64,000 bases of DNA from an uncultured Planctomycetia bacterium (GTDB lineage Bacteria; Omnitrophota; Gorgyraeia; Duberdicusellales; 4484-171): positions 762 to 64,761 of the forward strand of contig CAZPYY010000001.1 in NCBI GenBank assembly GCA_964590995.1. The letters run 5' to 3'. A program made the translations under genes and the position numbers. Under the pieces are notes generated by a model. The model was not told the origin of the DNA, did not search any database, and worked only from the letters and a program-made list of their open reading frames with translations. Shown here in pieces: positions 4,000 through 59,700 of this stretch. Numbering within the stretch: position 1 is the first letter of the stretch; the number at the start of each line of letters is the position of its first letter.

Positions 4000-4607
4000 A
4001 ACACTCTCTTTAATTGTCTCTCGATGCGTTCATAGATTTGAGGCAGGCTGTCACAGGCATCAACTATTTTTACCCGGCGGGGATACTTTTTTGCCAATTG
4101 TAAGTACCCCCTGCGCAAGCGGTTATGAAAGCTCAGCGCTCTCGACTCAATACGGTCTTTACTCTTTAGCCTAGCTAAGCCCAATTTTGGCGGTGTATTA
4201 AGGACTAAAGTCAGGTTAGGAACTACACCTAATGAAAACATCTCAACTGAACTTTCAACAATCTTACCTAACCCTAAGGCAAAACCTTGATAGACAAGAG
4301 TTGAATCAAAGAAACGGTCACAAATAATAAAGTCGTATTTTTTAAGGTCTTCTCTTAACTTTTCTTCAATAAGTTGAGTCCGGGCAGCAAGATAAAGGAG
4401 TAACTCAGTATGAGCAGATAACTTTTTATTCTTCTTGTCGAGAAGGATCTTTCTTATCTTCTCACCGACCCTGGTTGAACCCGGCTCGCGGTATACCTTA
4501 AAAGAAGCTTTTCTCTTTCGCAAGAGCTTCTCAATAAACCTAATAACACTACTCTTACCACTACCCTCTAACCCTTCAATAGTGATAAAAAAACCCTTTT
4601 TCTTCAC
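3996..4607 (-). CDS. tmk: thymidylate kinase
   Basis: 203 aa; P-loop IEGLEGSGKSS; DRF motif; typical size. Confidence 0.9.
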   Translation of the reverse strand: MKKKGFFITIEGLEGSGKSSVIRFIEKLLRKRKASFKVYREPGSTRVGEKIRKILLDKKNKKLSAHTELLLYLAARTQLIEEKLREDLKKYDFIICDRFFDSTLVYQGFALGLGKIVESSVEMFSLGVVPNLTLVLNTPPKLGLARLKSKDRIESRALSFHNRLRRGYLQLAKKYPRRVKIVDACDSLPQIYERIERQLKRVF

Positions 4608-5998
4608 AGCTTCACCCTGTAAGTAGTTCCAGTATTAGTATCCTCTAAGATTATGCCCCGTTCTTCTAGTTTCTTTCTTATGTCATCAGCTTCTTGATAT
4701 TTTTTCTGCTGCTTATAGTTAGAACGCATCTTTATTAACTTCTCGATATCTTTTGCTGGCATCTCAGTAACCTCTACAGGTTTAAAGCTAATACCAAAAA
4801 TATCTAAAATCTCTTCAACTAATCCGCCAATACCGGCTAATTTAGCTTTCAAATCAGCTTCGGTATCTAGAATCTTATTACTAGCACTAATTATATCGAA
4901 TAAGACTGCCAGGCCCTTAGGCATATTAAAATCATCATCCATAGCCTCAATAAACTTATCCCTAAATCGCTTTAATAGCCTTTCAGTCTCCTTAGTTGCT
5001 TTAGCCTTCTTCATTGAGCCTATTCGATTCATAAATATCTGAATTCTCTCATAAGCCTTTTTTGCCTCTTTCATTTTCTGATCGGAGAAATCTACTGAGC
5101 TAGAGTAGTGAGCTTGAAGATAAAATATCTTTAAGATATCCGCTGAGTATTTACTTACTGCATCTTGAATTGTAACAAAGTTCCCTAAAGACTTAGCCAT
5201 CTTCTGGCTATTAATAGTTAAAAGGCCATGGTGTATCCAGTAATTAGCAAAAACTCTTTCAGTTAAGGCCTCAGCCTGGGCGCACTCATTCTCATGGTGA
5301 GGAAAGATTAAATCCCTTCCTCCGCCATGGATATCTAAGGTATCAGTCTTTAAATACTTCCGGCTCATGACTGAGCACTCGATATGCCAACCGGGCCTGC
5401 CCTTTCCCCAAGGACTCTCCCAAGAAGGTTCTCCTTCCTTAGCCGTCTTCCAGAGAGCAAAGTCTAAAGGATCTTCTTTAGCCTCACCCTTTGATATTCT
5501 TACACCCTCTTTCATCTTATCAATACTCTGCCCGGAGAGCTTACCGTAATCTTTAAGCTTTCTTACGCTAAAGTAAACTCCGCTCTCAGTAACATAAGCA
5601 TACTCTCTATCAATTAACTTCTCGATATACTTAATCATATCTCCTACATTCTCAGTAGCCCGGGGTTCTTTATCGGCTTTACTAATACCTAGAGCTTTTA
5701 AATCCTGATAGTAGCTATCGATATACTTATTAACTAACTCCTTCCAATCAACTCCTAACTCCTTAGCCCGATTTATAATCTTATCATCAATATCAGTGAT
5801 ATTTCTTATAAACTGGACCTTATAACCCCGATACTTTAAGTATCTTCTGATGACCTCAAAGACATAGAGGCTTCTGGCGTGGCCAATATGACAATCATCA
5901 TAGACAGTAATTCCACAAACATACATCTTTACCAGAGATTTTTCCTGAGGGGTAAAGAGGTCTTTGGTCTTGGTTAAGGAGTTATGAATCTTTAACAT
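4604..5998 (-). CDS. cysS: cysteinyl-tRNA synthetase
   Basis: 464 aa; HIGH-type CHIGHARS and KMSKS-type KMAKSLGN; zinc-binding Cys near the N-terminus; 4-bp overlap with tmk. Confidence 0.9.
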   Translation of the reverse strand: MLKIHNSLTKTKDLFTPQEKSLVKMYVCGITVYDDCHIGHARSLYVFEVIRRYLKYRGYKVQFIRNITDIDDKIINRAKELGVDWKELVNKYIDSYYQDLKALGISKADKEPRATENVGDMIKYIEKLIDREYAYVTESGVYFSVRKLKDYGKLSGQSIDKMKEGVRISKGEAKEDPLDFALWKTAKEGEPSWESPWGKGRPGWHIECSVMSRKYLKTDTLDIHGGGRDLIFPHHENECAQAEALTERVFANYWIHHGLLTINSQKMAKSLGNFVTIQDAVSKYSADILKIFYLQAHYSSSVDFSDQKMKEAKKAYERIQIFMNRIGSMKKAKATKETERLLKRFRDKFIEAMDDDFNMPKGLAVLFDIISASNKILDTEADLKAKLAGIGGLVEEILDIFGISFKPVEVTEMPAKDIEKLIKMRSNYKQQKKYQEADDIRKKLEERGIILEDTNTGTTYRVKL

Positions 5999-5999
5999 C

Positions 6000-6488
6000 C
6001 TATTTCTTCTTACGCTTCCTTAAGGAAACAAAAGCAAAACAACTAATACTATTCTTGTTACCGAGGATATTTAAACCCTCTTTAGACTTAAGTTTTACAT
6101 TTATCTTAGTAGTTGAGAGGAGTTTCTTCAAAGACTTAGCAATCTTCTCCTTAAAGGAGAAGAGCCGCGGCTTATCAGTAACAATAACAATATCTAAATT
6201 ACCAATAGTAAAGCTCTTCTTTACCTTCTTTATGGTAAAGTTTAAGATTTCCTTGCTGTCGATTCCTTTTGACCTCTTAACTTGCGGTGGAAAGTAATCG
6301 CCAATATCTCCTAAGCCAGCTGCCCCGCATAGAGCATCACTTACAGCATGCAGTACTACATCACCGTCAGAGACAGCGATTAAGCTGAAAGAAGAAGGAA
6401 TCTTAGCCCCACCTAGGATTAAATCCTTCTTCCTCTTGCTAAGCCGATGAACATCAAAACCTAAACCTACCTTATAGTCTTTCATCAC
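6000..6488 (-). CDS. ispF: 2-C-methyl-D-erythritol 2,4-cyclodiphosphate synthase
   Basis: 162 aa; GFDVHRL and HAVSDALCGAAGLGDIG motifs; overlaps ispD by 17 bp (separate genes, not fused). Confidence 0.85.
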   Translation of the reverse strand: MMKDYKVGLGFDVHRLSKRKKDLILGGAKIPSSFSLIAVSDGDVVLHAVSDALCGAAGLGDIGDYFPPQVKRSKGIDSKEILNFTIKKVKKSFTIGNLDIVIVTDKPRLFSFKEKIAKSLKKLLSTTKINVKLKSKEGLNILGNKNSISCFAFVSLRKRKKK

Positions 6489-17928: not shown

Positions 17929-17946
17929 CCATTACCTCCTACCGGT

Positions 17947-18624
17947 TTAGGATTCGCCTAAACCGAGCTCACCGTCTTTAATAAATAACCTATCCTTAGC
18001 GCACTTAGCTAACTCTAAATTATGAGTAACTAAGATTATTGTCTTATTCTTCTCTTTATTTAACTTACCTAATAGAGCAACTACCTTCTCTTGAGAGTCT
18101 TTATCTAGGTTGCCTGTAGGTTCATCACAGAGAATAACCTCAGGGTCATTAACCAAAGCCCGGGCAAAGGCCACCTTCTGCTTTTGCCCTCCGCTTAACT
18201 GCGAAGGAAAAGCCTTCTTCCTCTCCTCTATTCCTAAGTATTTTAACAAGTCTTCTATGGTTTTAAAAGAGTATTTTCGTCTATTTAAATCCAGGGCTAA
18301 AGTAATATTTTCAAGGATATTTAGCTCATCGATGAGGTGATAAAACTGAAAAACAAACCCAATATGCTTATTTCTCCATATTGAGAGCTCTTTATCCTTC
18401 ATTTTGTAGATATTTTTGCCCTTAAAAAGTACCTGACCTCTAGTAGGAGAGTCTAGACCGCCTAAGCTATGAAGCAAGGTAGACTTGCCTGCTCCGGAAG
18501 GGCCAACTATAGCCAGGTAATCTCCGGAATCAAGAGATAAAGAGAGCCCCTTTAAAGCCTGGATTCGCTCTTGGCCGCTACGATATTCTTTAGTTAAAGA
18601 ATTTACTTTAAATAACTCACTCAT
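17947..18624 (-). CDS. lolD: LolD/MacB-type ABC transporter ATP-binding protein
   Basis: 225 aa; Walker [13 protein letters not shown]; signature [15 protein letters not shown]; overlaps the FtsX-type permease gene. Confidence 0.75.
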
Positions 18625-24986: not shown

Positions 24987-25072
24987 CAGAACTCTTTAAT
25001 CTATGTAATCTTTTCTAAAATCTGAGTAATCAACGGTCTCTGGTACACCTTTAGAAGTCTTTCGGAGACCGT

Positions 25073-25375
25073 TTATATAACCACTACTAGAGGGAAGATC
25101 GCCGGTTTATGAAACTCTACTCCTGCTTGCCACTCATCAGGGGTTTTACTGCACCAGCGTACAATCCCTTTCAATAGCAGAGATTTATCTGTCTTAGTAC
25201 AAAGGTTTATGCGTAAATGGGTACCTTTAGGTAAGTTTTCGGCACTAGCTAACCCTGCTCCGGCTGCACCTATGTCATGGCATTTGATTCCCATAGGTGT
25301 ATTAGTGTTACCCACACATGAGCCTAAAACAGCGCAAGGATACCTTTCGAATGTTCTTCTTTCTCTAACCATCAA
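25073..25375 (-). CDS. PilZ-domain protein (putative c-di-GMP receptor)
   Basis: 100 aa; RRTFER (RxxxR) and DIGAAGAG (D.S..G-like) PilZ motifs. Confidence 0.55.
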   Translation of the reverse strand: MMVRERRTFERYPCAVLGSCVGNTNTPMGIKCHDIGAAGAGLASAENLPKGTHLRINLCTKTDKSLLLKGIVRWCSKTPDEWQAGVEFHKPAIFPLVVVI

Positions 25376-25451
25376 ATACCACCTCTCTTATTTTATCACA
25401 GTTCATCTTTTTTTCTACCCCTTATTGAGGTTTAATCTCTAATCTCTTCAC

Positions 25452-25480
25452 TGGCAAGATAAAATTTAGCTATCTTGCCA
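25452..25480. other. perfect 10-bp inverted repeat with 9-nt spacer (tggcaagata-aaatttagc-tatcttgcca) overlapping the stop codon of the PilZ gene
   Basis: seen directly; followed on the + strand by a T-rich run (aaattttctttctc); function (terminator or protein-binding palindrome) undetermined. Confidence 0.35.
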
Positions 25481-25873
25481 CCAAATTTTCTTTCTCAGCT
25501 GGTCACCGAAGTTACTATCGAGGTATGAAATAATTCTTGCTCTATCTATATCCCTTATCTTGGTAAATAAAATACCGCAAGAAGGAGTAGTTTCTGTTCG
25601 TTTTGTCCAAACTACCTTACCTAAAGCATCAATCTCACTGGGCTCCCCGGGAATATGAATAGTTAACTTTACCTCCTCTCCGGCCAAAGGAACGCTTGGC
25701 GAACTTATCCTAGCTCCTCTTAAACTTAAATCCAGTAGCCTTGCTTCCCAGACTTTATTGGAATTTACAAAGGTATAATCCAGAGGTATATCTACTTCCC
25801 AACGATGCCCCATTCTTGTCTGTTCTCCTCTCTCCTCTCCTCTTTCTTCCCTTCTCTCTTCCATCTCCCTCAC
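25466..25873 (-). CDS. PilZ-domain protein (putative c-di-GMP receptor)
   Basis: 135 aa; N-terminal EERREERGEERGE repeat (encoded by a CT-rich microsatellite) supplying RxxxR motifs; DLSLRGARI (D.S..G) motif; the true start may be the internal Met at MGHRWEV. Confidence 0.6.
   Translation of the reverse strand: MREMEERREERGEERGEQTRMGHRWEVDIPLDYTFVNSNKVWEARLLDLSLRGARISSPSVPLAGEEVKLTIHIPGEPSEIDALGKVVWTKRTETTPSCGILFTKIRDIDRARIISYLDSNFGDQLRKKIWWQDS
25815..25870. repeat. CT-rich (CTCTCC)n-like microsatellite inside the 5' end of the PilZ gene
   Basis: 'ctctcctctctcctctcctctttcttcccttctctcttcc' encodes the Glu/Arg repeat; potential slippage-prone tract. Confidence 0.4.
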
Positions 25874-25901
25874 CTCTCACTTGCCCGGTTGAGGACTGTC
25901 C

Positions 25902-26417
25902 TCAACCGCTCTTCTGCCCACCCCGGGGGTGTACATTTTTGGTTTCTTTTAAAAATACACGCCCAGCTCTAGAGATGTTAAGCATATGAATTATGTAGAT
26001 GCGGATAGCTAATACTATCAATATTGTAATGCCTGTATGCGCCCACAAGCCAAACCATGAATCGGTTACTAGAAGTTTCTTTACTGAGATTGAGTATATT
26101 GGCCACCAAATATTTATTATAGGTATAGTAAATAAATTCCACCAAGCTAAAATAATAGCTAATGTTCTAGCGAAATTAAATCTTAATAGAAGCAGAAGAA
26201 TTCCGATAAAGAAAGTAATTACACTTAGCATCGCTAAATAATTACGATAAGCATCTAAAAGGAAATAGATTTCTGAAGGTGTAGACTCCATTGTAGTTAC
26301 TCCTATGAGTAATTCCCAAACACCTGAAATTAAGTGGAAAATTGCTATTGCTACAACATGACAATTTGCCCGGTTTTTTGATAATTGTTTTGTCATCTTC
26401 TTTTTCTTTTTATTCAT
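25902..26417 (-). CDS. small integral membrane protein (4 predicted TM helices), translationally coupled to the giant gene
   Basis: 171 aa; poly-Lys N-terminus; four hydrophobic helices; GGAGGG Shine-Dalgarno sits in the 15-bp gap after the giant ORF stop (26433). Confidence 0.5.
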   Translation of the reverse strand: MNKKKKKMTKQLSKNRANCHVVAIAIFHLISGVWELLIGVTTMESTPSEIYFLLDAYRNYLAMLSVITFFIGILLLLLRFNFARTLAIILAWWNLFTIPIINIWWPIYSISVKKLLVTDSWFGLWAHTGITILIVLAIRIYIIHMLNISRAGRVFLKETKNVHPRGGQKSG

Positions 26418-29700: not shown

Positions 29701-32700
29701 AAATCAATTATTTTAGGATTATCATCTATCCTGTCAGAAAGTGCCAGCATAGCCGCTACCCGCACGCTAACTTCTTCATCCTTATTGGAAACAAACTCAA
29801 ACAATAAATCTGTAACTTCTTGTTCTTTAAACTGTACTAAAGAAGATATTATTTTACAACGCGTTCCTGAAACATAATCTTTTGCTGCCTTGATTAATAC
29901 AGGCAAAACCTCTCTACCTCCGATACGCCCTAAAGCAAATATTACATTTGATTGAAATTCTTTATATTCAGCCTTTTCTAACAGCTCAATTAAGTATGAA
30001 GTTGCTTTTGAACCACCCAATTTACTTAACGCCACAATTGCTTCTTCCATTACATTAATATCTCTGCCTTTTAAGTTTGAATCATACTTTTTCGGATTTG
30101 AGATAATATCAATAAGATATTTTACTGCCTGGGGACTTCCTAGCTGTGCTAAAGAGAAAACAGTTAAAACAAATACTCGTTCTCTTATCTCCTCTGTAGT
30201 CCACTTATTTGGTAAAAGTAGCCTCAAAATGAACTCATGTTTAAATTCATCTGCATTGTAATCCCCCTTGAGGGCTTTCATTAATGTATCTTTGGCCAAA
30301 GAATCGCCTAAACATGCTAATACCCTTGCAGCATAGAAGGGGGTCCGAAAATTATCACTCTTTAAGGCCCTTAAATACCCTCCGTACAACTCCTCATGAG
30401 TCACTCCCAACTTAATCAAAACATCTCCTGGAGGATAAAATAACTTAGGTTCTACAATATATAAATTATGCTGCCCGGCAGCCCCGGTTGTCATCTGTAT
30501 ATAGCCATCCACTAATCCTTTCTTTATCTCGTTAGTCATCTCAGGTGCACGAAATAGTTTAGGGCTTTGGGTGGATACACACCAATAGTAAATTAAAGCA
30601 TTACCATAATTTTTACGTTTAAGTGCTCTCTCTGCTATCTTAATCTGTTTATGCGTGAAAGCTCCAGAGCCTGGGGTAGCACACCCACTGTGAAAAACCA
30701 AACTTAATAAAAGCAATATAATTATAGCCTTACCAAGAAATGATTTTACCTTGTTTAGGCGAATCCCTGCCTTGCCGGCAGGCAGGCTAAACACCTCCCG
30801 GTTGAGGACTGTCCTCAACCGCTCTTTAAGGCTTTTGCCTGTTATATTTTCTTCCCCTACCGGAGAGCTGGTCGACTCAAACTTAATCTTAAATACTTCT
30901 ATTTGAAGCCCTAATATCATATCCTGCTGTCCAGCAGGGCTGTAAGCAGGAATGATGCCAAGTTTCCTATCCTCAGCAGCCGTAACTAAAACCAAGGCTG
31001 CCGGATTTCTTATTTTTAGTGCCTCAGCAAAGTTTTTTGTTTTTTTGCGTATTACTTTCTCATAATCTCTATACTCTATAGAAGGATCATAATCATCTAT
31101 GGAAGAGTAATAATCAAACTCGATAACTGTTACTAAATTACGCGGAAAGGGCAACACAGAAAGGTTGTATTGATCTACTACTCTATCTCCGATATAGTCA
31201 TCGCAATAGTACCCTGGTATAGAAGGCGTAATCCACCAGGGCTCAATGGCTAATCCTCTCTCAACAAGGTAAGGTACCCAATTATTATTCTTAAGCATAC
31301 CCGAATAAACCCAATTATCCGAATGCTCGTCGCCATAGAAAAGAGAAAAAGGTGCTTTAAGAATTCCGCGAGCAACCAGTCTTTCTAACCATCTAATACC
31401 TGGAGCGTGTATCCGGCAAAGAGCGACAGGACAATCCAGCAATAAAGAAACTCCCTCTGATATTTTAATTGGGCTGGAGCTAAAGGATAAAGTTTGATGG
31501 TTTTGAGGATTATCAAGAACTGTGGATTTCTTAGCTTTAGAAGAAAGGGCAGGCGAAGAGGCCCCACCAGCCACGGAAGAGGTAACCTCTTCTTGAGTTT
31601 TAACCTGCCCTTTTATATTATTATACCTTTTTAAATTACCAAGGGAGAGAATTTTCTTAAATATTTTTTTTGTGTTATATATGATTTTAATTTTTTCTTT
31701 GGATATCTTGAAGAAGGTAAATATTTTAAATGACTTCCTAATCGGTGGTGCGTGTGATTTAAAATTTAATATATAAAACTGCACTGGGGAGCTGGAGGAA
31801 TTTTCTTGCTGATCTAGCATTCCTGGAACTTTTGTCAAGGCGATAATTAAGCGGATAATCCTGGAGTTTCTGGCAATCATCTCATCCCGGCTTAACCATA
31901 TGGGAATTCCTAAGTTATTGAATATAGAGCTAAGGAAAAAACTTTGATTGAAACCTTCTCCTTCCTTAATAAAATTAAGTATGTCTTTTTCCGAAAGCCT
32001 TCCTATTTCCTGGGAAATGCTTTCTAACTGAGATGTATAATGGAATAGAGGTTGAGGGATGAATATGTTAATTGTGTCAGTCAATTCCAAAGCCACTTCG
32101 TTATGCATACATCTTATAGCAAAAGTAATTGGTTTTTCAATGGCCGGCAATCTACTCATTGTCTGGTATACCCCATCAAAGATACCGAGTACAACCTGAC
32201 TGTTTGCCGGGCTCACCTTTACAGGTTGATCTTTAACTATTTTATATATACCTTCATCAATATCCTCTCCAGTTAAAAACAGGGCCCTTTCCGCCACCTC
32301 TTTACGCAAGTAAAATTCTGCCTTGCCCCTGCGTTGTTTATCCTCCAGCATAAGCCTAAAATATGGCTCATCATGCGTATTGACCAACTTAAGCGAAATG
32401 GAATAAGAGGATGATTGAATCGGCGAGCTGGAATCACCATTTTTTAACTGTTTTGCAGAACCAATAATCCTATCTTTTAACCTATTACTTAGTTGTTTCA
32501 TGAACTCTTCGCTTGTTTTTATATCAACTGTCAATGCCTGAATAACTTTAGGGTCAACCTCTGTATGTTTTACCAAGGCTTCTATTAAATAATCTAAGAG
32601 ATAATTTAGTATCTGAGAAAATACTTCTTTTTTGAACTTTACATCATGCATATCCTGCAAAGATAATAAAAGACGCTTGATTGTTTCCTTTATGTCCTTG

Positions 32701-35700
32701 GGCACACTGCTATCTGCTTCTCTGATAACCTTATCTATTTCTTCTAAGCTCAATAATTTAAATACATCTTGAAGAGAAATCTTCTCTTTTATGTGAATAT
32801 CTCCCTCATCAATAAGGCCATGTTGAATCGCAACACTAACTAAAATGAAAATTACTGCCACCTTTGTGCCGTCTCTTAGTTCGCTTCTCCACTTAAGTGA
32901 ATCAACCTTAAATATGTCTAAAGTCGTTTCATCTCCTACAACAAAATATAGCGTTTTTTCATCTTTGTTGTATCGAATCGCCACAATTGGATTGCCAGAC
33001 CAAATTGCCTGTTCAAAAGGTTGATTATCTTGAGTTAGGTACTGCAAAAGTGTAGTGCCATCTTTTGCTTCTAACTGCATTTTCTCAATAAATCTTCCTT
33101 GATCCATCTTATTCTTAACAAAATACAAACCTCCCCCATCCTCGCTAACTTGGAAAGTAAAGACCATATCTGGCGACTGTAAGTGTATAATACCCTCCTC
33201 TGTACTTGTAGGATCTATAATCTCAACAAAACCTGCTTCTTTTAACATTTTTAAATAGTCTCTCTTTGTTTGCTGCTCTTCCGCGCTTACCGGCGAGCTG
33301 GAAATTGAAGAACTGCTAGTGAGGAAACGCGGTAAAATATCTGCTAACGAAACATTCTCAATGTTTTTGACATCTCTCAATATCCTTTTAAGTTCTTCGG
33401 CGCCATCTCTTCCTCTTCGAAAACTGGTCCAGATCACAGCCTCCCAAAATATAGGGTCAGGCTTTCTCTCTAAAAATTCTACAAAATTTTTAAGGCTACC
33501 TTGATCCCAACTAATAACTGCTAGATGTCCTAATCCATGGTATCCTTCACCAATCATAGTTTTTATCCTGTCAAATAGAAGTTGGATTGCCTCTTTACCA
33601 AAATTATTTTTAAGCCTCCCTAAAAATAAACTGGCCTCTAGAACGAGACTCTGAACATGAAAGTCTTTGGAATGATCATGTAGTAGTATTACAAAGTTGA
33701 CATCTCTATGAGAAAGTATTTCTTTTAGTCCTGCCAATTCTAAGGAACCTGCTTTGAACTTCTTTATATCAATAGCTCCCTCATTAACAAGTTCTCTGAC
33801 TTTTTCTTCAATATTGTTAACAGCGGAATTGGATTCCTTTATAGGCGAGCTGGAGCCAACAAACGAAGGATAAAGGAAAGAAGAAGCTGCCTTTTCATTT
33901 ATCAACATAGAATTAAGCTCCGAAATAAGGTTGTCTACTATAAAATCGATAAATTCTTCAATGGCATGTTCCAGCGACTCGGCGACTGTGGTAAATGCGG
34001 GATTAACATTTTTATCTCTTAGGATCTTAATTGTCTTTCTTATATCCTCTATTATTTTTTCATTTATTATCTTTTCTATCTCTTCAGCAGGAGTGTCAAT
34101 AATGTTAAGAAATTCATAATGGGCGGTTATCTTATGAAACTTATCACCTATACAGGCAAAGAAATCAGCGTCAAAATCTAAAAATATAGGCCTTGTTTCA
34201 TCTTTAAAATCAGGAAGGCCATCCAGATGCACAACATGCATCTTGACTTTCCTTAGTCTTATCAATTCTGCCCCTTGCGGTATACGCAAGTTCCCATCTG
34301 CCTGAGGATGCTCACGGCCAAAATAGCAGTATTTACGCCCATCTTTTAGCTTAAACATAGCTGCATACACACCAAATTCTTCGTCGATACCTAATGCATA
34401 TCCTTGGGGATATACCTGCCATATTTCATCAATCAAATCATATAAAACACCTGCGAAAATATAGCAGTCTTCAGCGTAAGTAATACTTTTTGCTTCTTTA
34501 ACGGTCTTGGGTTGCGGTAAAATACGCAGAGGCGCGCCAGCATCTTCATGGGCGTCAATATGAATAAGTATTGCCCCCATAATACCTTTAAGAATCCGCA
34601 ACATTTCCCAATATTTATAAGCTTCGCCATGGTATTTTATCCTGGCGAATTTATTTTTAAGGGCGTTATTTACCGGCGAGCTGGAAGAATCTTCTCCTCT
34701 TATCCAACTTTTTAGTTCTTCTTTTGAAACTTTACCATAAAGTTCTTTTATCGAGCTTATTTGCTGTAATATAACTGAAGGATCGATGCCCTTCTCATTT
34801 TTAAGGAGGACAACTCCGGGGTATCGTGTCAATTGCGCTTCTCTACCTTCCTGTTTAAGTAAAGCGCACACTCTTCTTTCATGAGATGGTACCGTGCGAA
34901 AAACAAGCCATTCTTCAATCGGGCTACTCGAGACGCAATTCCTCAGGCTTTGTACTTTCGAGGCCGAATTACACTCATTGCCAGCAACTGGCGAATCATA
35001 ACCAAAGGCCGCAAGAGAGCTGGAAGAAGCATTGGGAGCTTCGGGCTGGTACAATTCCGGAAAGAATTCTTTGAGCTTGCCGGAGAATTCCTGATGCATT
35101 AATTGCAGGAATTCCGCAAGCTCATATCTGGAATAGGTTCTGCCTAGTTTATATAACTCTAAGCGCAGACTAGTAAGTTCGTCTATTTCCTCCAGCATCC
35201 TGTCATTGACCAGGGCGTTAAGGAAGCTGAAACGCAAGGAACGTGCGTAATTCATAGTATAAGGAATATTATTTGTCACCCAGAGCGCTTTGTAAAGTTC
35301 AACCGGATGCTCCAGAAGCATTTCGAAAAAAGTAGTTTTGTTAAGCCCTGTTTGGTCGAATCCCTCGTGATTGATGTTTGAAATTGCCTTCATTATCCGG
35401 TTAATCCACAAATTATTACGCCACAACCTGCTAAATGTACCTCTGAAGTCTTGGGGAATCTTATCAAGGTCCGGCCTAAATAGGAATGCTGTCGCTAATA
35501 CATCAAATTTACCTTGAACGAACCTTTTGTTAATTCTAGCACCGCGTAAGTAAGGGTTAGACAACGGTCCCGCCTCCTGCGGAAGCCTTAATACCTTAAG
35601 GTCCATCAAATCTTCTATATGCACACTTTCTGCGACAATAAATATTGCCTCTTTATCATCATAAGGATAAAATTCGATGTCCCCAACTCTTTTTCTATAA

Positions 35701-38700
35701 AGAATATCACCCTCTGTTACGCCTTCGGCATCTTCAATGGAAATAGCCCGGTCCCGCCATCCTTCAAAATGCTCAATTGTCGCCATTTCTTCTTCTGTCC
35801 TGATATCGGCTTTAGGCCAATCCGGATGGCCCAAAATAATCTTTCTCATATCAAACAACAGATCCGGTAAAAAAGAAATAATGGCTGTTGTATTCTTTAA
35901 GTTAAATGTGATATTCTCAACGCTACAGCCCGAGAATATCTTGGCCAACAACTCCCGCCAAGTCTGGCAAAGATTAAAGGTAAGGGCCTTGTTGCCAATC
36001 AGGTTATTTGCCCGTTTAAGCAAGCTGGTAAGTAAATCCTGAGTGGCGGAATCAAGTGCATACCCGGCCAATAAATCCTCGTGGGTTAACCTCTCAAACG
36101 CCGGCGCCGAGGAAGCACCAGAATCACCTTTCGTAGGCGAGCTGGAAGAATCAGCTCTTAGCTCGTAGCTGGTAGCTAGTAGCTGAAAACTATCCGCTAC
36201 AGGCGATGAGCTATTATCTAGCAGTGAGCTGGAGCGGGGGGAAACGAAAGACGAGGTATGAGAGACGAGGGATGAAGACGCGATACGCGAATCTTCCCCC
36301 GGTGAGGCGGCGGAGACGTTAGAGTAATGGTTACTACCCTTACGATTAATATACTGAATCATATCTTTCGCCCATGAGAATATTCTAATGAACAATAGTG
36401 GCTGCTCAGACTCTTTAGTTATCATATTAATAAGAGGTTTATTATCAAGGCATACTCGCACCAAGGCCTGATGTGTTCTTACCAGTTCATAGATAGTGCT
36501 TTTAAATTTTTCACTTCTGACATATGCCTCTTTAGCAAAGATTGTTTTTTTAGGACCTTTTTTTCGTTCTCTGTATTCATCTTTATAAATCCACTCAAGT
36601 GGCAGATACATTTCTGCCCAATTTCCTTTAGCTAAACGCTGTAAATTTTGCATTGTAAAACCAATCTTAGTGATTATGCAATTATCTAAATGCCCGCCGG
36701 CAATGATTAATCTTTGTCCCTTAGATAAATCAACCCTCCAATCTTTTACATGAATAAGGTTAACATTAGGCAATCTTGATTTTAGATAAGAATATCTTTC
36801 CTTAATAGGCATAATGCTGAAATATTGAATATTTGGGAAGTGGTATTGAGCGGAAATTGAATCGGTACGCTTTGTAGCGAAAGAATTGGGTTCTTCACCT
36901 ACCGGCGAGCTGGAGTCAATTGCTCCTTCCTCTCTCAAAGTGTTGACTACGCTATACAACCATGAGTTGATGACGAATAGTCTTGCAATAATACTTGCGA
37001 TATCATTTTCACAATCATATCTTCTAAAGTAATCTTTCAACAATCCCTCTATTTTGGCGCGTTCAATGGCTGTATCGATGACTGTTATTTCTTCGGCCGG
37101 TATGGTCTGTTTAGGATATTCTTTAAGCGAAATCTTATAACTATAAGCAGGTTTTCTTGTAACTTTTTCCCTGTCTTCTTCATCTAGCGCTTGCCTGGAG
37201 AAGATAGCGATAGAGCGTTTCTCCAGTGCAAGTTCTGATTGCGGATACTTTCCGACAAAAACTAATTTGTCTACTAATTTTCTTAATACTTCGTAGTTTT
37301 CCAGCATAAACTCTGATGTAGATAGACCTTCTTTAAAATTAAGTACGCTAAATTGTAAGTTGCCATCCTTATCAGCCGTTAGCCCGTTCTCCATGACCTC
37401 TCTCCTTGCCGATCTGGAGATATTTACCCATAGCGTTGGATGGAATAGCCTTCTCCCACATTGTTCAATCACAAACCTCAATCGCCTCTCAATGAAGTGC
37501 GGTATGTTTTCGTGTGATTTATAACTCTTTATCTCATCGGGTGGCGTACTAAGAATATCTTCTTTAGCTAAGAAGTCATGCATTCTTACTATATTTTTTG
37601 CGCGCGGGAGATTGAACTTCGTAGTTGCGCCAATTATATAGATAAAAGAGGCTGCTCTCTGGATGGGGTCACTAGTATAAATTCCAAAATACGGATTGCT
37701 TGATATGAGGATATGTTCTTCGTAGTCATAATTTATAACTGCGGCTAAGAATCTTTCAAACGGAGCAACGGGCAACAGTCCTTTTCTTGCCATCCCTTCC
37801 AAATGATCTGCCATTTCAGCAAAACCATTATCTCTCAGATACTTAATTGCCATCTGTAGGTCTTCATCTTTCGGCCCTTTTCTATGCAACTGGTCAAACT
37901 CCTTACCAATACCTTCCAAAATACCCTCCAAATCTCTGCCGATTTCTTTTCTAGCCGGCCTTGGGATGCCTGGCATCGCTCTGACTATATCCTCTCCCTG
38001 CCCGTCCGGCAAGCGGGTCCCTTCGGCGGAGGAGGAAGAGGAGGAATTATTTGTCTTTGCAATTTCCTTCAGCACATTCAAAATCTCCTGCCGCAGCGAT
38101 GTGCGACTAAGTTTATTGTCTATGGCGGGCGAGCTGGAAGATTTTCCTTTCAAATCCAGAATCTCCCGTAAAAGATTCCTTTTAACCTGTGCATACAGTT
38201 CCAGTAATACTGGTGCTGTGCACAGCTTCTTGGAACCCCTGTGTATCAAAGATTCCTCAAAGTCAGGGATATCTTTTTTATGAAGGGCATGTGTGGGATT
38301 TAGAAATGCAGACATTAAGAATGTCTTGTTATTTATTCCAGAAAAATAACGTACCAAATGCGAAAGTACTGATTGATCACTCACTAATATTATATCTGCC
38401 TGCTCTACCGCGTCTGCTCTAACAATCTCTATATTATGGAATTTATAAAACCGAGCAAGCCTCTCTCGCATAGCCACATAACCCCGGCAGTAAGAAATAA
38501 TTTTAGTAATAAACTTACAGGAAGACTTTTCTGCTCTAAGCGTTGTACCCGCAGAGAATATTTCTATGCCCATTCTATCCAATGGATCTTGGAGCACTAA
38601 TTCAAGCAATGGACTGCGAAAGACATTAACAGTACATACAACACGAATGCGCTTAATTTGTTTAATTCCTCTGGCTATAAAGATATTCTCGACTGAACGC

Positions 38701-53700: not shown

Positions 53701-56700
53701 TGTTGATAAGCTTCCTTCTCTGTATGTTTAAGATGAACCAGTAATGCTTTTGGCGAAGGCATTAATCCTAACGCATGTGCTCTGTAGAGAAATTGCATAA
53801 ATCGATCATAGAAATCTTCATTAATTAAAACCAGTGGCTTTTGATTTCCAGAATTTCTTAGATTAAACGAAAGAAGCTCACCAATCTCATCCAGGGTACC
53901 AAACCCACCAGGAAAGGCTGACCCACCCAGACTCTTAAAAATAAACATTGCTTTACGTGTGAAAAAATAGTTAAAAATATTCGTTATGTCTTGATATTTA
54001 TTCGATAGTTGTTCATGAGGAAGATTGATACATAAACCAACTGAATTAATAAACTCACGCAAATTCTTATCAACGCTAAGCGCACCTTCGTTTGCTGCGC
54101 GCATAATCCCCGGACCGCCACCAGTAACTACCGAATATCCACCCCGCACTGCTCTCTTACCAAAACGAACAGCTTCTTTATAAAAATGATGGTGGGACTT
54201 GAATCGTGCCGAGCCAAAAGCAAAGAGAGCTGGCCCTAATTCTATGAGCGCACTCTTAGACGCTAGCCATTCATTGATAGTTTGTTCAAAGAATCTCTCT
54301 GAAAGTATGTTGTCGCCTCTTTTATTCCTACTGGATACCGGGCTGCTGGCCTTGTTCTGATTCAACAAGAACATTGAACTGGAAGATTTCTTTTTCCTTC
54401 TTGAACTCTTTTTCTTCTTTTGTGATTTCGCGGAAACAAGATCATGCGTTAATACACGGGAAATATCAATTTCGTTTTTATCGACTCCTTTGGCTTTAAC
54501 TGACCCGCGTATGACACCGTAATGAATAATCTTAATCACTTTTGCGAATGCTCTCTCAAAAGAATAAGAAAAATCCTCTGGCTCTACGGTAAACGCCGCT
54601 GCCAGCATCTTTGCCAGGAACAAGTTACTGTCTTTTATCTCGACAGTAGTCATTACCCTTAATATCTGCTTTAATCTCATTAAAGCAAATTCATTAGTAG
54701 AAAATACTCTTACAACTTCATCTTTTATCCTATCAACATACAATCTTCCTATTTGGCTATCATCTAAACTATCAAGATATTCGTCAAAACCAAGAAGGTA
54801 ATGCCCTAAATGATAAGGAGGTTGATCAGGATACCTTTTACGTACATCTTCCTTTAGAAATTTAATTATTTCTTCTCGTGGTAAGCCTTGAGCTAGCAAT
54901 TCAATAAGCTGGTTAAACGAAGACAAGAAAGCTCCACCGTCGTTTTCATCTTGTAACTTGCCCGCAAACGGGCTGCTGGAATGGTTAAAATAATTATTGC
55001 AACACCTGAGAGCATCATTAAAAATTTCCGCGATGATGTGGTGGGAAAAGTGTTCTCTGCCTATTCTTATATTATGCTCTATTATTCTCTTTCTAAAATC
55101 GGCATCATCAATTATCCTCACCATAAGCATGATAGCTTTCTTTGAAACTGTATCAGTATGAGAGAAAAATGATTTTCTATCAATCAGCGGCAGTTTAATT
55201 ACCTCATCTTCATCAATTTCCATGGTTTCTATAGCCCATAACCCTTTCGCACGTATATCAATTACCCACACCGGGTGAGGATAAACAACAAATGGCCTCT
55301 GATAATAAGCAGCCTCTATCTTAGCATTGCAAAAACCCTCTTGATACGATGGTATTATTATAAGGTCAGCTGCTTCATGTACCTCCCGCAGGCTAAAAGG
55401 TCCAAAGGTTCCCTCAACAGACATTACAAGATTGACCCTCTTCTCTTTGGCAAAACGCTCTAACAGTAACATATAACCTATACCTTCGTCTGTCGCCGGA
55501 TGGGTAATAATGAGGTGCATTCGCCGGTGCGGATATTGCTGCTGCAATTGAGCGGCAATCTCAATGGCCAGTTCTAAATTCTTGCGCCTAATAATTCTAA
55601 GCGGCGCGATCAACAATATGTCATCGGGATGAATATTATGAAATGCCCTGAATGCCTCTCCTGACCTTCTGTTCATGTGCGGTAAATTCTCGAAATCCCT
55701 TGCGTTAGGAGCTATGGCTACCCGCGTATCATATTTATTAAACATCGTTAACTCCTGATACGAATTAATAACTACCGTATAGAGGTCTTCGATCCCGCCA
55801 TAACTTCTACCACCCGCGATCTTATTCAGCCGCCCTGTGACCTTCTCGTTATCGGTCTCGTATTGCTCACGTTCCCACCAGTAATCATGATTGTGGGTAA
55901 TGGTAAAAATAGTCTTATCTTTCATTTCATGTTTTAATTCATTCATAATCTCAACCACCGCGAGCGACAATGCAATATTTACCGGAAGCGACAACACATT
56001 CTCCGGAATGACAAAATCTATGTCATTAGATATAATGAATTTCTTCAATCTTGACTTTATACAATCTTTTAAAAGATGGAATTTATCGATTACCTCATCA
56101 AGTTCCTGATTGAGCTTTCTCTGTTCAGTTTCTTCCTCAATGCTAAGGCCTTCTCTTTTCTGTTTCTCCTCAAGCTTATCTAACTGCTTAGCCAGACTGA
56201 ACAATTGTCCTGTTAATTCTTCAATCTCTTTATTCTTAAAATGGCAGAGAGAATCAACACTCATCCCATCAGCAATATCACTAACGCCGTCAACCTCACC
56301 GGCATAGAAATATACCTCTGCCCCACCCTTCTTGCACACCTTTGCCCACTCTATTAATTCATAGGTAACGCCGTCGCGCGCTTTCTTGCTTATGCGAAAC
56401 GATAAAAACAAAAATCTTTTACCGGCAGCCAGGCTCCTAAGTTGTTTAAATATTTCGCCTTTTTTACCTAATAACTCAAGAGTTGAAATAGCCTTATCAG
56501 CGTTAGTTTGCGGCTCTTCTATAGCCGAACTGCTGGATTCTTCACCATTGTGCTCTCTTATTAATGTTGTTGCAATCGGGCTGCTGGAATCTTTGTCCGG
56601 GCTAGGTAATGTCTTTAATCTCTGCTCTATATCCTCTAATTGTTCATCTAGCCAAAGATGAAAATTATACGAATTAGTGAATTCATCAATAAAATCAAAT

Positions 56701-59700
56701 GCCTTGATAATCAACTCTTTTATTAACTCCAATCTATTCTCATCGGCATCGTTTAAAGTAATATTAAAGAAAGGCTTACTTATGGGCATTTTTGTTTCTT
56801 TTGCTATTAATGCTGAATGCAAATCTTGTAACTTCTTGCCGTCTTCCAAGATCTTATGTTTCTCGCCCGTTAATCTAAATCTACCTTTTGGAAAATCCCG
56901 GAAGGCAAGGATGATCGGCCAAGTTTTTAAGTCTAATTTAAATAAGTCTTTTAACCAAACAACAAGATCAACAATACAAGCAGTTGACCTAATATGGATT
57001 CCCCGATGATCCTGTAGTTGGACTACAAAAGTGATGGAAGTCTTCTTAATTGACGAGCTACAGAGAGTAAAAAGGGACCTGGCCCCTTTTATGTTATTTC
57101 TTAATGACTCTTTAAATAATCCTCTAGTCCACTGTAAGGTATCTTGATCGTTAATTTGTACTGGACTTGCGCAATGTTTCTCATCAATAGTAGTTATATC
57201 CACAGGCAAGCTGACGCGAAGGGATGCTGGATCTATGCGTATGCCTCTGGGCCCTTTTCCTTTATGGACCGCGGCTGCAAAGTATGCGCCTCGGACCTTA
57301 ATCAAATACACAGTGCCAGAGTCACCGCCGACAGGTTTGGCCCCTAACGCCACTATTATATCTTTTTTTATAAAAACCGTATATCCGCTAGATACCGTAT
57401 CGTTATAGCCGCTCACCAGAGTAATAAACAGTCCTTCGTCTAACTCGGATGCTATGGGAACCGGCAGAAGAGCTCCTCCGCGTACTGCTTTTTTCTCAAT
57501 TACAAGCATGGCCAGGTCAACATTTGGATCTCGCCAGATTACCCCTGCCTTACCTATCAATTCATCAGTGTTAGTTCTAAGTATAACCTTATCTCTTTCT
57601 TTAACCACATGGGCACAAGTTAAAAGGATGTAGGCATCTTTTGTCTGTTTCCATACAAAGGCGCTCCCTAAACGGGCAATCTTAACAATCCTTCGAGAAA
57701 ATGCTCCTTTTTCTCTATCCTGGGCAACCTTTTTTTCTAGATTTTGCCTTGCTAATTCTGTCTCAGGAGCTGCTAAAGCTAAAGCTATTTCTTTCACATC
57801 GTCTCGGGGGGTGATTGTTCTTAAGATAAAGTCGATATAATACCTTTTTTCTCTTCTTTGTTCAACGGTTGCCGTAAGGGATTTCAGAGCTAAAGCTATT
57901 TCTTTCACATCATCGCGGGGGGCAATTGTTCTTAAGATAAAGTGCATAGAATAACCTTTGATTGCCCGGATAAGTAAGTCCAATTCCTCAGCTGCATCAG
58001 CTATTCTTTCAGCTGTTGCTTTGAGATCAAGGTTATCTTCAGCAACAATTGCTTTAAGCATAAAACCGACGCAGTAAGCTGGTATTCCTCTTTGGGCCAA
58101 GGTGTTAGTGCAAAAGTTAAGAGCTAAAGCTACTTCTTGAGTGTCATTTCGAGCAGCGATTGCCTTCTGAATAAAGTTAATAGTATGCTTGTCTATTCCT
58201 GTTTGCCATAAGGTAAGTTCAAATTGTCTATTCTCTGCTAAAACAGGTGAAGAGGCAAGCCATCCATTTTGAATATTTTTGTGCAAACTTATCTCTTTGA
58301 ACCTCTGGCCTAACTCAGGCAGGGTGATATCCAGCTCGCCCCGGATAAGTTTGAATGCCTGTTCATATTGTCTGGCGACTCGAATAATACTTATTTTGTC
58401 ATGGCTTATTTCATAGGCAGCCTGCATCATTTCCAGCCACTTAGTGTTATTGTTTTCTTTATGGGCATAATACAGCTTAGCTGCTTCTTGCAGATACTTT
58501 CCGAGAAGTTCCTGGGATTTGCTGAAATAAAAATCGACAATCTTCCTTTTTTCTTCGTATTCGTCTCCTAATTCAAAATGGTGCACGATTTGTTCAAAAG
58601 TATAATCTGTACCGGCAAAAACATCCATCAACCAGCCATTCACCCCATGTTCAATGTATTCAGCCGCACAGCCAGTTTTTGTGGCGATATTTAAGTGGCC
58701 ATTAACGGCTGCTCTTCCATCAGACGTTCCGCCAGCCTCACGGGTTGAGCGCGGCATGCTATTCCATACATCGCAGGCCTGGGTAGCGACTTTCATAATC
58801 TCAGTTCCCGAACCATCGACAAAGATAAATTTGCCTTTCATATCCTCTCTATCAGCCATTATCTTAAACCAGTCTACCCAATCCTTGCCGGCTGCATCGC
58901 GACCCACTCCGCCCATGAAGAAATTCCCCGCCAGGCCATAAGAATCACCCCATGGAGTCGGATACAATTTATCTCTCTCGCCTACAACCCAGGGAAGAAG
59001 GTCAAACAATATGCGCTGCTCTTTATACTCAACAAACCTGCGCACCAGACCAAACAAAGGCCTATCTTGATATTCGAATCCATAACCCTTTGTTGCCTCT
59101 ATGGTCTTGTTAAGCTGCGTTTTCATAGAACAACCTATCTCGTAAAGCACCTTCCCTGTAATTTGCTCTCCAGCTAACTCAAGTTCAAGAAGCTTTTGGC
59201 CCTTCCACTGCTCCGGACAAGAGCCGTTGGTGATCGCTATAACCTTATCAGTATTATCAGGCACAATGATCAGCTTGGTAGTCTCAGCATGCTCTTGTGA
59301 TACAGCATTGATAACTTTGACTCTTGAGTTTTCTGCCAGCCGCCTGGTCAAATTCACTCTACCGTCTCTTACTATATCTTCCGGAACCAAGTCAGGGCCG
59401 ATATTTTCTCTCAACCACCAGGCATCAGAATAAATCCCTAGCGCGGCAGTTTCCGGAGTATGAGTTGTGAAAAGGACTTGCGTATTCGCAAAGATGCTTT
59501 GCTCGCCCTTTTCTCTAAACTGGTCATTATCGAAATATCTAATATCATTCATCATTGCCTGAAGCAGAAAGAAAGTCTGAGCTTCGTTGCAACGTAAGAT
59601 GTCCGGAGCAATCCCAATTTGCTTAAAAAACTCAACATACGCCCGTCCTAAGAAAGCCATTTGTCGCACCTTTCCCGGCTCTCTAGGATAAAGCCCATAG

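Follow-up and report, generated by a model that had tools for sequence, protein, structure and literature searches.

The giant reading frame and its modules

The window, by which is meant the whole 64,000-nt stretch of contig CAZPYY010000001.1 that was analysed, supplies all coordinates used here, and the coding strand of the giant ORF is the minus strand. The ORF occupies 26433-63989 as a single reading frame of at least 12,518 aa, with a mean GC content of 0.407 (sd 0.051 in 150-nt windows) and values of.49/.36/.38 at the first, second and third codon positions. Pfam domains found in it include phosphorylase/GT5, Trypsin_2, GT1, LOG, HTH, methyltransferases and HEAT, and the best named matches of the LysRS were to Ca. 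Susulua stagnicola and Omnitrophota MAGs. With more than 10 kaa and many unrelated Pfam domains it is an Omnitrophota multi-enzyme giant gene, and it resembles the Archaeovorin-type genes in being over 12.5 kaa long and tiled by unrelated enzyme and regulator domains together with HEAT repeats. Some of its modules have stand-alone homologues, an example being P0017, a 251-aa protein that has a signal peptide of its own.

Cleavage of Omnitrophota giant proteins into smaller products has been suspected (West-Roberts et al. 2023, bioRxiv 10.1101/2023.11.21.568195; Nielsen & Lui 2026, bioRxiv 10.64898/2026.06.07.730766), and one of these two papers states that the cleavage points are unknown. The words linker, SSSP, polyprotein, fusion and intergenic are absent from the text of both, and neither paper describes fixed-codon junctions or a conserved nucleic-acid element in frame. 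Apart from the border carrying that element, the module borders (~45) are uniform SSS[PS][VI] junctions with fixed codons, the consensus being TCC AGC TCG CCN GTN, which is translated as SSSP[V/I]. Translation starts inside the ORF at the codon following SSSP were considered and rejected, GTG or ATG being present there in only 8/30 junctions.

The AT-rich stretch

The original prediction drew attention to a linker of ~20% GC, rich in Lys, Ile and Phe and lying between two SSSP junctions, and as a description this was fully borne out. Between the SSSSP (31785-31799) and SSSP (31470-31481) junctions the GC content falls to 0.20-0.23 across 31600-31750 (0.20-0.21 in 100-nt windows of 31600-31749, 0.22 for 31593-31742 and 0.275 for the entire 31590-31800), the lowest 150-nt value within the giant ORF and one that matches the true intergenic spacers of the window (0.21-0.24). 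Codon-position periodicity is lost, the linker having GC1/2/3 values of.20/.21/.30 against those of the gene given above. There are no in-frame stops, where shuffles of the linker lead to an expectation of 5.7 (P(0) = 0.002); the other two coding-strand frames contain 3 and 10 and those of the opposite strand 4, 2 and 9. An antisense gene at the linker was rejected, every opposite-strand frame being closed in the window.

The encoded peptide (aa 10731-10800 of the giant ORF, minus strand) is extreme in composition. Its F+Y+N+K+I fraction of 0.63 is the maximum of the protein over 61-aa windows (mean 0.28, sd 0.06) and its net charge of +15 is the highest among all such windows. Comparison of the linker with Pfam and NCBIfam profiles gave no match at E ≤ 10, and an AF2 model contained one long helix (aa 10764-10800, pLDDT 70-86) but no compact fold (overall pLDDT 61, pTM 0.27). 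The Lys/Ile/Phe-rich peptide is probably a side effect of the translation of A/T-rich spacer DNA.

Parts of the proposed boundary cassette

The AT-rich stretch would form part of a cassette of ~250 nt (31544-31799) that is best described as an SSSP junction, Block A, a variable spacer, an invariant A/T box (TATAATAATATAAAA) and a conserved ~70-nt stem-loop with an invariant tip. The cassette and the features associated with it are as follows.

31785-31799, minus strand: 5' SSSSP junction (TCC TCC AGC TCC CCA), left border of the cassette
31747-31772, minus strand: Block A, ATATTAAATTTTAAATCACACGCACC, translated as ILNFKSHAP, single copy in the window
31627-31746, minus strand: variable ultra-AT-rich spacer with the Lys/Ile/Phe-rich run, GC 0.20-0.23
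31602-31626, minus strand: Block B, GTATAATAATATAAAAGGGCAGGTT, translated as RYNNIKGQV, containing the TATAAT/TAATAT boxes and the 5' stem arm
31544-31613, minus strand: stem-loop of ~70 nt, with outer stem AAAGGGCAGG/CCTGCCCTTT and inner stem GAAGAGG/CCTCTTC, then a U-rich tail
31562-31584, minus strand: apical tip, TACCTCTTCCGTGGCTGGTGGGG, translated as TSSVAGG, identical in the five full copies while flanking stem positions vary
31548-31562, minus strand: junction-like ASSPA (GCC TCT TCG CCT GCC), 3' arm of the stems
31470-31547, minus strand: inter-junction tail ending in the SSSP junction (31470-31481), 93 nt shorter than in locus L004
30761-30850, minus strand: related structured leader within the ORF, immediately upstream of the HEAT-repeat module, with hairpin CGGTTGAGGACTGTCCTCAACCG at 30799-30821
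30681-30752, minus strand: internal signal peptide of lipoprotein type, KVKSFLGKAIIILLLLSLVFHSGC, opening the HEAT-repeat distal module (read by eye)
54375-54425, minus strand: second site named in the original prediction, SQKKKKSSRRKKKSSSS, purine-rich and outside the element, followed by two junction copies 13 aa apart

The last of these, the poly-Lys patch at 54.4 kb, had been put forward as a feature similar to the AT-rich linker. The comparison fails, as the patch has a GC content of 0.31-0.34 and carries no promoter-like or conserved element; it is a different, ordinary feature.

Homologous copies and nucleotide constraint

An exhaustive HMMER search against 1.84 billion proteins recovered the linker from P0010, which is also a giant protein (67% identity), and from P0020. 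P0022 came from a profile search, and loci L003, L004 and L006 from pattern scans for more copies. A first metagenome scan with the GC-rich block and two scans of viral contigs found nothing. Five or more further giant-gene loci of related Omnitrophota MAGs (L001, L002, L003/L006, L004 and L008) carry homologous copies in frame; the known copies number five or six, with three from fairly close relatives, and neither the window nor any locus has more than one. The modules upstream of the element differ in every locus, and even relatives with 95-97% identity do not share the order and content of their modules. The linker frame is open along the full length of contigs L003 and L004. In three loci whose 3' end is complete, 1,200-1,700 aa separate the element from the stop. 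In L002 the element is the first feature to follow an AT-rich intergenic region of 530 nt, the ORF beginning 43 codons upstream of Block A.

If the linker marked an old gene boundary, orthologues split at this point might have been anticipated. None were found: the linker is read through in L001, L003/L006 and L004, and only in L002 does an ORF start nearby. L008 was rejected as an example of a split gene, since its ORF frames overlap at the breaks, which are probably frameshifts. An exact 22-mer match in L005 was treated as due to chance because the contig is unrelated and AT-rich and has no similarity in the flanks. L009-L012, the syntenic loci of the LysRS relatives, had unrelated content, with the element not within reach. 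The possibility of a MITE or transposon remnant was also dismissed, the element being single copy with no terminal inverted repeats or target duplications and only short repeats at chance level.

Conservation is concentrated in invariant blocks, of 25 and 23 nt in all copies and of 26 nt in three. Block A is identical at the nucleotide level in the window, L001 and L002 and has one change in L008; it is absent from L004, and in L003 only AATTTTAAA is recognisable. Block B is identical in the window, L001, L002, L003/L006 and L004, and in L008 as far as the end of the contig. The homology of L001 and L008 to the window starts at the SSSSP junction (TCCAGCTCGCCGGTG). In the comparison with L003/L006 the neighbouring HEAT module has 65% nucleotide identity, with the same codon used at 64% of conserved residues, whereas 15/15 codons of Block B plus the tip are identical (0.64^15 ~ 0.001); by simple arithmetic 47 identical nt against a 65% baseline have a probability of ~1e-9. 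There are no synonymous changes in Block B, and the six codons just upstream, LGNLKR, differ between the window and L003 by 4 synonymous and no non-synonymous changes. Relative to L001 the opp genes are 87-91% identical and the blocks 100% identical. These alignments show that constraint on the nucleotides of the conserved blocks exceeds what the encoded peptide alone would need. Indels among the copies are of 63, 6, 3 and 93 nt, all of them divisible by three, and with the frame staying open it follows from the copies compared that ribosomes must read through the cassette.

The variable parts present a different picture. The spacer between Blocks A and B is ~120 nt long in the window, and the distance from the end of the PP codons to TATAAT is ~111 nt compared with 48 nt in L001/L002, a difference of 21 codons. 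The window and its close relative L004 have the spacer in common only over 31700-31627. This shared part diverges ~3x faster than the module next to it (7/72 differences, compared with 20/612), with changes between the two too few for dN/dS to tell linker from module. The AT-rich spacer, the fastest-diverging part of the element, appears weakly constrained, and was apparently lengthened by 21 codons in the lineage of the window and L004. A degenerate tandem copy of the downstream half, as the source of the extra 63 nt, received weak support (P = 0.15 when the two halves were compared with each other and 0.0135 in the comparison with L001) and was not accepted. In the inter-junction tail L004 has 150 nt, including two extra hairpins (translated as ERLRSDLNR and FRIRLN), where the window has 57 nt.

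Stem-loop and related hairpins

The stem-loop at 31544-31613 has perfect 10-nt arms and a minimum free energy of -33.5 kcal/mol (z = -2.9), and ranks as the 6th most structured 90-mer of the entire minus strand. A consensus fold of five sequences has 24 pairs, 2 of them compensatory (AU->GC) and both in the single lineage of L003; 94% of cells are paired compared with 40-58% in slid controls, a result equalled by 25/500 shuffles. ASSPA corresponds to VPSPA in L003, which keeps the pairing, and to ASSSV in L002, which has lost the outer stem. Rfam 15 covariance models gave no match at E ≤ 1 in 30500-33000 and none at the gathering score window-wide, and ARAGORN found no tRNA or tmRNA in the window.

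The most structured 90-mer of the minus strand is the leader at 30761-30850 (z = -4.5; the fold of 30720-30880 has z = -4.8). Its hairpin at 30799-30821 is identical to 25886-25908, which overlaps the stop codon of an ordinary gene, and in L001, L002 and L004 the same hairpin directly follows the element. HEAT_2 repeats lie downstream of the internal signal peptide at 30681-30752, the homologue of which in L003/L006 (MFRPGLNQTKSFLRKGIIILFLLGLSLYSGC) begins with ATG ~75 codons past the element, as read by eye.

The G+C-rich stem, A-tract flank and U-rich tail (UUUCUUCU in the window, U7 in L003) are reminiscent of a rho-independent terminator or attenuator, and a terminator-like call was made on the coding strand in L006, with none on the coding strand of the window. 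The hairpin differs from ordinary terminators in its ~70-nt length, internal helices and sequence-invariant tip; moreover, the element lies inside an ORF needing further transcription and its outer stem is absent in L002. A slippery frameshift site at A_AAA_GGG was rejected, the frame being mismatched and the -1 frame meeting TAA (by eye). AAAGG(G)CAGG was likewise rejected as a recurring general signal, there being only 3 coding-strand matches and no pattern.

Promoter-like sequences

The promoter-like string reported in the original prediction (aaaaaGGTATAATaatataaaaGGGcagg, 31633-31604, coding strand) is present, and is part of the invariant Block B, but its standing as a promoter is less certain. 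TATAAT at 31620-31625 is kept in all copies and matches the -10 hexamer, although in DNA as AT-rich as this its occurrence by chance is not surprising. A sigma-70 scan found no -35 partner and made no call at the element, either in the window or in L002; promoter-like matches in the region are as numerous as expected from shuffles. A -35-like TTGG[T/C]A occurs at 16 nt in three lineages: as TTGGTA-16-TAATAT in the window (8/12 by eye, with no call from the scan) and as TTGGCA-16-TAATAT in L006, which the scan did call on the coding strand. No -35 was seen in L001 or L002 in the alignment of copies. An antisense promoter-like match at 31593-31621 was discarded, not being conserved in L001 (by eye).

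The arrangement is similar to that of internal sigma-70 promoters with 5' stem-loop stabilisers in that an invariant TATAAT/TAATAT within A/T-rich DNA precedes the base of a stable stem-loop by ~7 nt, upstream of a distal coding block. It departs from them in that the entire candidate promoter region is translated and stop-free, and in having no call above chance.

Relic, peptide, mobile cassette or signal

The linker had been interpreted as the remains of a spacer between ancestral genes fused by loss of stop codons. What stands of this is the intergenic-like GC content, the lost periodicity and the adjoining signals of intergenic type, to which can be added the hairpin shared with the end of an ordinary gene, the internal signal peptide and the modules with stand-alone homologues. 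The relic itself does not stand, the element being conserved. Conservation of the linkers among homologues had been named as the observation that would speak against it, and such conservation is found in sequence, since in-frame copies occur in five loci with differing upstream modules and three nucleotide-invariant blocks, but not in length. The junctions of the giant ORF are also uniform with fixed codons and not heterogeneous ex-spacers, which argues against a simple stop-loss operon fusion. Linkers of fused ('Rosetta stone') genes that arose from former intergenic DNA are private to a lineage and decaying. The present linker resembles them in being spacer-like, of low complexity and translated between modules with stand-alone homologues, but the element is common to at least six loci, has invariant nucleotide blocks and is found with different upstream partners. 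A neutral relic, in which the fused spacer would be functionless sequence that happens to be translated and its promoter-like strings fossils, would fit the GC content of true spacers, the vanished periodicity, the rapid evolution of the AT-rich part (pN/pS 0.57 on 7 changes, indistinguishable from neutral) and the lack of a domain match or compact fold. It does not fit the presence of the same element, in frame, in five or more further loci whose upstream modules differ, blocks that show no synonymous change beside a module of only 65% identity, the absence of stops when 5.7 would be expected, the lack of an orthologue split at the linker, or the uniform junctions at every other border. For Blocks A and B this reading is largely refuted, and as a whole it is very improbable.

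Selection might instead act on the peptide, with ILNFKSHAPP, YNNIKGQV and TSSVAGG/ASSP serving as a processing or docking signal, for example for a double-glycine-type cleavage that releases distal proteins, and the basic stretch forming an amphipathic helix with affinity for membrane or nucleic acid. In favour are the frame, which is always kept, the synonymous-only changes in LGNLKR, the long helix of the AF2 model, the Trypsin_2 module in the same ORF and the cleavage into smaller products suspected in the literature (10.1101/2023.11.21.568195; 10.64898/2026.06.07.730766). Against this, the absence of synonymous change in 15 codons is left unexplained, as are compensatory changes that alter residues (QEEV/ASS -> LEGS/VPS) yet keep base pairs; the AF2 confidence is low (pLDDT 61, pTM 0.27), there is no Pfam or NCBIfam match even at E = 10, and the basic helix region coincides with just that part which L001 and L002 do not conserve. 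VAGG with a small residue after it resembles the end of Nif11/NHLP-type leaders, a lead in favour of this reading, the likeness lying in the conserved ...E-E-x-T-S-S-V-A-G-G then A/S. The motif here is, however, internal and not N-terminal and has no NCBIfam or Pfam match, and the Pfam scan of the giant ORF contained no Peptidase_C39 domain. Overall we regard a peptide function as unlikely. A selfish or hitch-hiking cassette, a shuffled module spread by recombination at junction DNA, would make near-identity a mark of recent spread and not of function. It is suggested by the junction DNA on the left border and junction-like ASSPA on the right, by homology in L001 and L008 that begins exactly at the junction, and by a module order and content that vary between 95-97% identical relatives, with a different context in every locus. 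The changes relative to L003 nevertheless form a mosaic (4 in 18 nt, 0 in 24, many, 0 in 23), which points to long-term constraint and not to recent transfer; there is a single copy per locus without terminal inverted repeats or target duplications, the left junction is missing in L003, and the L004 breakpoint falls within the spacer. Such a cassette is distinctly unlikely.

We tentatively favour, with a little less than even confidence, a conserved single-copy boundary cassette that is kept in frame and carries a DNA or RNA signal, the preferred mechanism being an internal promoter with a 5' leader hairpin. The element is conserved in frame across related giant genes and is therefore probably a DNA or mRNA signal that is translated as a side effect. 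The constraint would reflect a signal of the type usually found between genes, kept free of stops so that the giant ORF continues. TATAAT/TAATAT would act as the -10, with the weak -35 in three lineages, and a candidate transcript may begin at the foot of the stem-loop, supplying the distal modules, here one module of unknown kind and the HEAT-repeat lipoprotein, with their own stabilised mRNA. The internal transcription start is a possible and favoured candidate. Within the same explanation the hairpin could alternatively be a partial terminator, an attenuator or an RNA-processing site, controlling how much proximal product is made relative to distal. The peptide rich in Lys, Ile and Phe would then be a by-product of spacer DNA that gained 21 codons in the lineage of the window and L004. 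A peptide function could equally account for the invariant tip and for LGNLKR having synonymous changes only.

A broader proposal is that the giant ORFs are "stop-less operons", in which cassettes are joined in frame and working boundary signals are kept stop-free, the element at 31.6 kb being one live boundary. The signals retained would be promoters, leader and terminator-like hairpins and signal peptides; distal modules could have their own transcript, and the junctions might serve as points of recombination and/or cleavage. We consider this generalisation rather improbable.

Implications for giant genes

At issue for Omnitrophota giant genes is whether each yields one transcript and protein or is cut into parts, and where. 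The element and the fixed-codon SSSP junctions surrounding it provide concrete conserved coordinates for that question. Should the element prove inert it would be a modest curiosity, a conserved low-complexity linker. If it is a live internal promoter or attenuator, regulatory signals of the kind found between genes can persist within a continuous reading frame, and both the annotation of giant genes and the view of their origin, by cassette assembly as against stop-loss fusion, would change.

The giant gene and its surroundings

The window covers part of a bacterial chromosome; ordinary genes and a single giant ORF, which probably extends past the window edge, lie there on the same strand. 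Among named relatives, the LysRS of the window is closest to Candidatus Susulua stagnicola (88%) and to many Omnitrophota MAGs, and the giant gene is therefore placed in a known class, the Omnitrophota giant multi-enzyme genes.

Features of the window
1-26.4 kb, minus strand: ordinary genes (MetRS, RadA, ClpC, McsB, LysRS, opp ABC transporter)
17943-17965: related hairpin, at the end of another gene
25886-25908: hairpin copy, over the TGA stop of an ordinary 171-aa ORF
26433-63989, minus strand: giant ORF, 12,518 aa
30681-30752: lipoprotein-type signal peptide predicted by eye, aa 11080-11103, KVKSFLGKAIIILLLLSLVFHSGC
30799-30821: hairpin copy inside the giant ORF, translated ERLRTVLNR
44282, 43223, 41861, 36911, 33851 and 32429, minus strand: example junctions of the giant ORF

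Pfam matches in the giant ORF comprise phosphorylase/GT5-like, Trypsin_2, GT1, two LOG, HTH, methyltransferase and HEAT-repeat regions, the bulk of the protein having no Pfam match. The Trypsin_2 module, a trypsin-like serine peptidase with a GDSG motif (~57320-57670, aa 2108-2224), is a candidate protease for self-processing at the junctions. No ORF of at least 150 aa is listed in the 915 nt at 24987-25901, where synteny with loci L001 and L007 points to two small PilZ-domain genes.

Within the giant ORF about 45 module borders are marked by the junction SSS[PS][VI]. Its codons are nearly fixed (TCC 19/24, AGC 18/24, TCG or AGC 21/24, CCG or CCT 19/24), whereas all six Ser codons are in use across the gene; the junction DNA is TCCAGCAGCCCG in the first third of the ORF and TCCAGCTCGCC[T/G]GT in the remainder. 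Homology blocks shared with other giant proteins have both their starts and their ends within a few residues of junctions, and relatives that are 95-97% identical nonetheless carry different modules. This gives the giant ORF the look of cassettes arrayed in frame, the junctions being candidate recombination and/or cleavage sites, and neither fixed-codon junctions nor a cassette array is mentioned in two Omnitrophota giant-gene papers (West-Roberts et al. 2023; Nielsen & Lui 2026). Junction copies also occur in clusters of two or three, 7-22 aa apart (36143-36290 and 54347-54390, e.g. SSSLLDNSSSPVADSFQLLATSYELRADSSSSPT), which may be scars left by module loss. SSSP junctions are absent from the giant ORF (2,064 aa) of a more distant relative, L003/L006; SDNGG/TDNGG recurs at the apparent borders of that ORF and may be the junction motif of another lineage.

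Homologous copies of the element

The AT-rich linker was originally suggested to be the relic of a spacer between separate genes fused by loss of stop codons. That it is a relic private to this gene is overturned because homologous in-frame copies exist in other loci; it belongs to a conserved cassette with differing partners, and the uniform junctions at the remaining borders also speak against a relic. When aa 10048-11247 were searched exhaustively with HMMER, the linker turned up at residues 2743-2810 of the giant protein P0010 (4,224 aa, encoded by L001; 67% identity) and also in P0020, a fragment of 109 aa, with P0022 added by profile search. Exact-pattern scans found it in MAG contigs L003 and L004 and in metagenome contig L006, whose sequence is that of L003. 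L001 shares synteny with the window (giant gene, PilZ genes, oppBCDF; opp genes 87-91% identical in nucleotides), L004 is closely related (95-97% identity) and L003/L006 is distant (HEAT module 54% amino acid and 65% nucleotide identity). The element is in frame within a long ORF in each of these homologous loci, and its frame is open from contig end to contig end in L003 and L004.

No orthologue split at the linker was found among the loci compared, L008 and L009-L012 included. In L001 (1-260) the 4,224-aa ORF opens right at a junction (…AGC TCC AGC TCG CCG GTG), its earliest possible start codon being the GTG that follows SSSP; upstream, all frames contain stops and there are direct repeats of GGGAACCGTTTTCACC. 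L008, which is closely related to L001, has its giant gene broken up into three ORFs (4564-6029) with frame overlaps of 34 and ~58 nt, and these breaks are probably frameshifts, from assembly error or real decay, rather than clean gene borders. In the loci L009-L012, which are syntenic with window 19-27 kb, a hypervariable site lies upstream of orf171/PilZ/opp: in Ca. Susulua-like genomes it is occupied by small individual genes, with the nearest 10 kb free of any giant gene, and another relative, L012, has a 16,417-aa gene whose final 1,515 aa are unrelated to those of the window.

Codon-level alignment of the copies defined the parts of the element.

Parts of the element, in order
Left junction
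Block A, ATATTAAATTTTAAATCACACGCACC: identical in the window, L001 and L002; one change in L008; absent from L004
Variable spacer
Block B, GTATAATAATATAAAAGGGCAGGTT: identical across all copies
Stem-loop, tip TACCTCTTCCGTGGCTGGTGGGG: tip identical across all copies
ASSPA, junction-like: supplies the 3' arms of the stems

Between the last of the PP codons and TATAAT the spacer measures ~111 nt in the window against 48 nt in L001/L002, and the ultra-AT-rich run is this longer, lineage-specific form of it. L004 shares only the distal 74 nt of the spacer with the window; the two differ at 7/72 sites in the spacer, 20/612 in the adjacent module and 1/90 in Block B and the hairpin. The extra 21 codons may conceivably derive from a degenerate tandem copy of the downstream half.

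Downstream of the element one or two more hairpins, translated ERLRLSLNR and FRIRLN, follow directly in L001, L002 and L004, with a compensatory change in L004 (GAGG/CCTC to GAGA/TCTC). They are not present directly after the element in the window, which is 93 nt shorter there. The first of them, CGGTTGAGGACTGTCCTCAACCG, has two nucleotide-identical copies elsewhere in the window; it is a recurrent hairpin of gene ends and, within the giant gene, is translated through in frame. The most structured spot of the entire strand, 30761-30850, is followed at once by the putative signal peptide and then the HEAT module, ~11,000 residues into the ORF; in L003/L006 a homologous putative signal peptide, also recognised by eye, opens with ATG ~75 codons past the element. 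With hairpins, signal peptide and the start of the HEAT module together, the region therefore reads like gene boundaries kept open.

Constraint and interpretation

The peptide (aa 10731-10800) does lie between two junctions (31785-31799 and 31470-31481), and the original prediction was right about its composition: GC is 0.20-0.21 in 31600-31749, the minimum of the ORF (mean 0.407, sd 0.051). Its likeness to intergenic DNA is also upheld, as GC equals that of true spacers in the window (0.21-0.24) and is flat by codon position (.20/.21/.30 vs.49/.36/.38 gene-wide). The encoded peptide has the highest F/Y/N/K/I fraction (0.63 vs 0.28 +/- 0.06) and is the most basic (net charge +15) of the protein's 61-aa windows. 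A poly-Lys patch at 54375-54425 had been called similar and shares none of the element's features. Neutrality of the stretch is one rival explanation. There are no stops in the coding frame, 5.7 being expected from composition-matched shuffles (P(0) = 0.002), and 2-10 in each of the five other frames. The frame is under selection: stops are absent, indels between copies (63, 6, 3 and 93 nt) are in frame, and LGNLKR shows only synonymous changes (four, with no non-synonymous, window vs L003). A second constraint seems to coexist with it, on the nucleotides of Block B and the tip, which look conserved past the needs of the encoded peptide: against L003, 15/15 codons are identical, the expectation being 64% (~0.001), and 47 nt are identical against a 65% baseline. 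Two stem pairs are altered on both sides (AU to GC), so that amino acids change and pairing is kept. With a z-score of -2.9, the stem-loop ranks sixth of all minus-strand 90-mers, and its pairing across copies is 94% vs 40-58% in slid controls, a value matched by 5% of shuffles (five sequences); the outer stem is missing in L002.

Only five or six copies of the element are known, and the taxon labels of the small contigs disagree (Planctomycetia, Aminicenantes, Omnitrophica). The upstream neighbour module is a different one in each locus, and the window's module preceding the element is followed by something else in the database protein P0007. Another rival is a shuffled cassette that spread recently. 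Alternatively the signal may be in the peptide, as a VAGG|A-type cleavage site, which we take to resemble the double-glycine cleavage motif. AF2 gives a single helix only, in the non-conserved basic part of the linker, and the element matches no Rfam family, tRNA, Pfam or NCBIfam profile.

The favoured interpretation is that the element acts as a nucleic-acid signal that is translated through. Its likeliest form would be an internal promoter from which a transcript starts at the base of the stem-loop, the alternative form being an attenuator or a processing hairpin. The predicted TATAAT string is present, no -35 partner was located, and promoter-like matches across the region are at chance level; internal initiation here is conceivable, as originally suggested. 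To function, the predicted internal signal peptide would first need cleavage or internal initiation.
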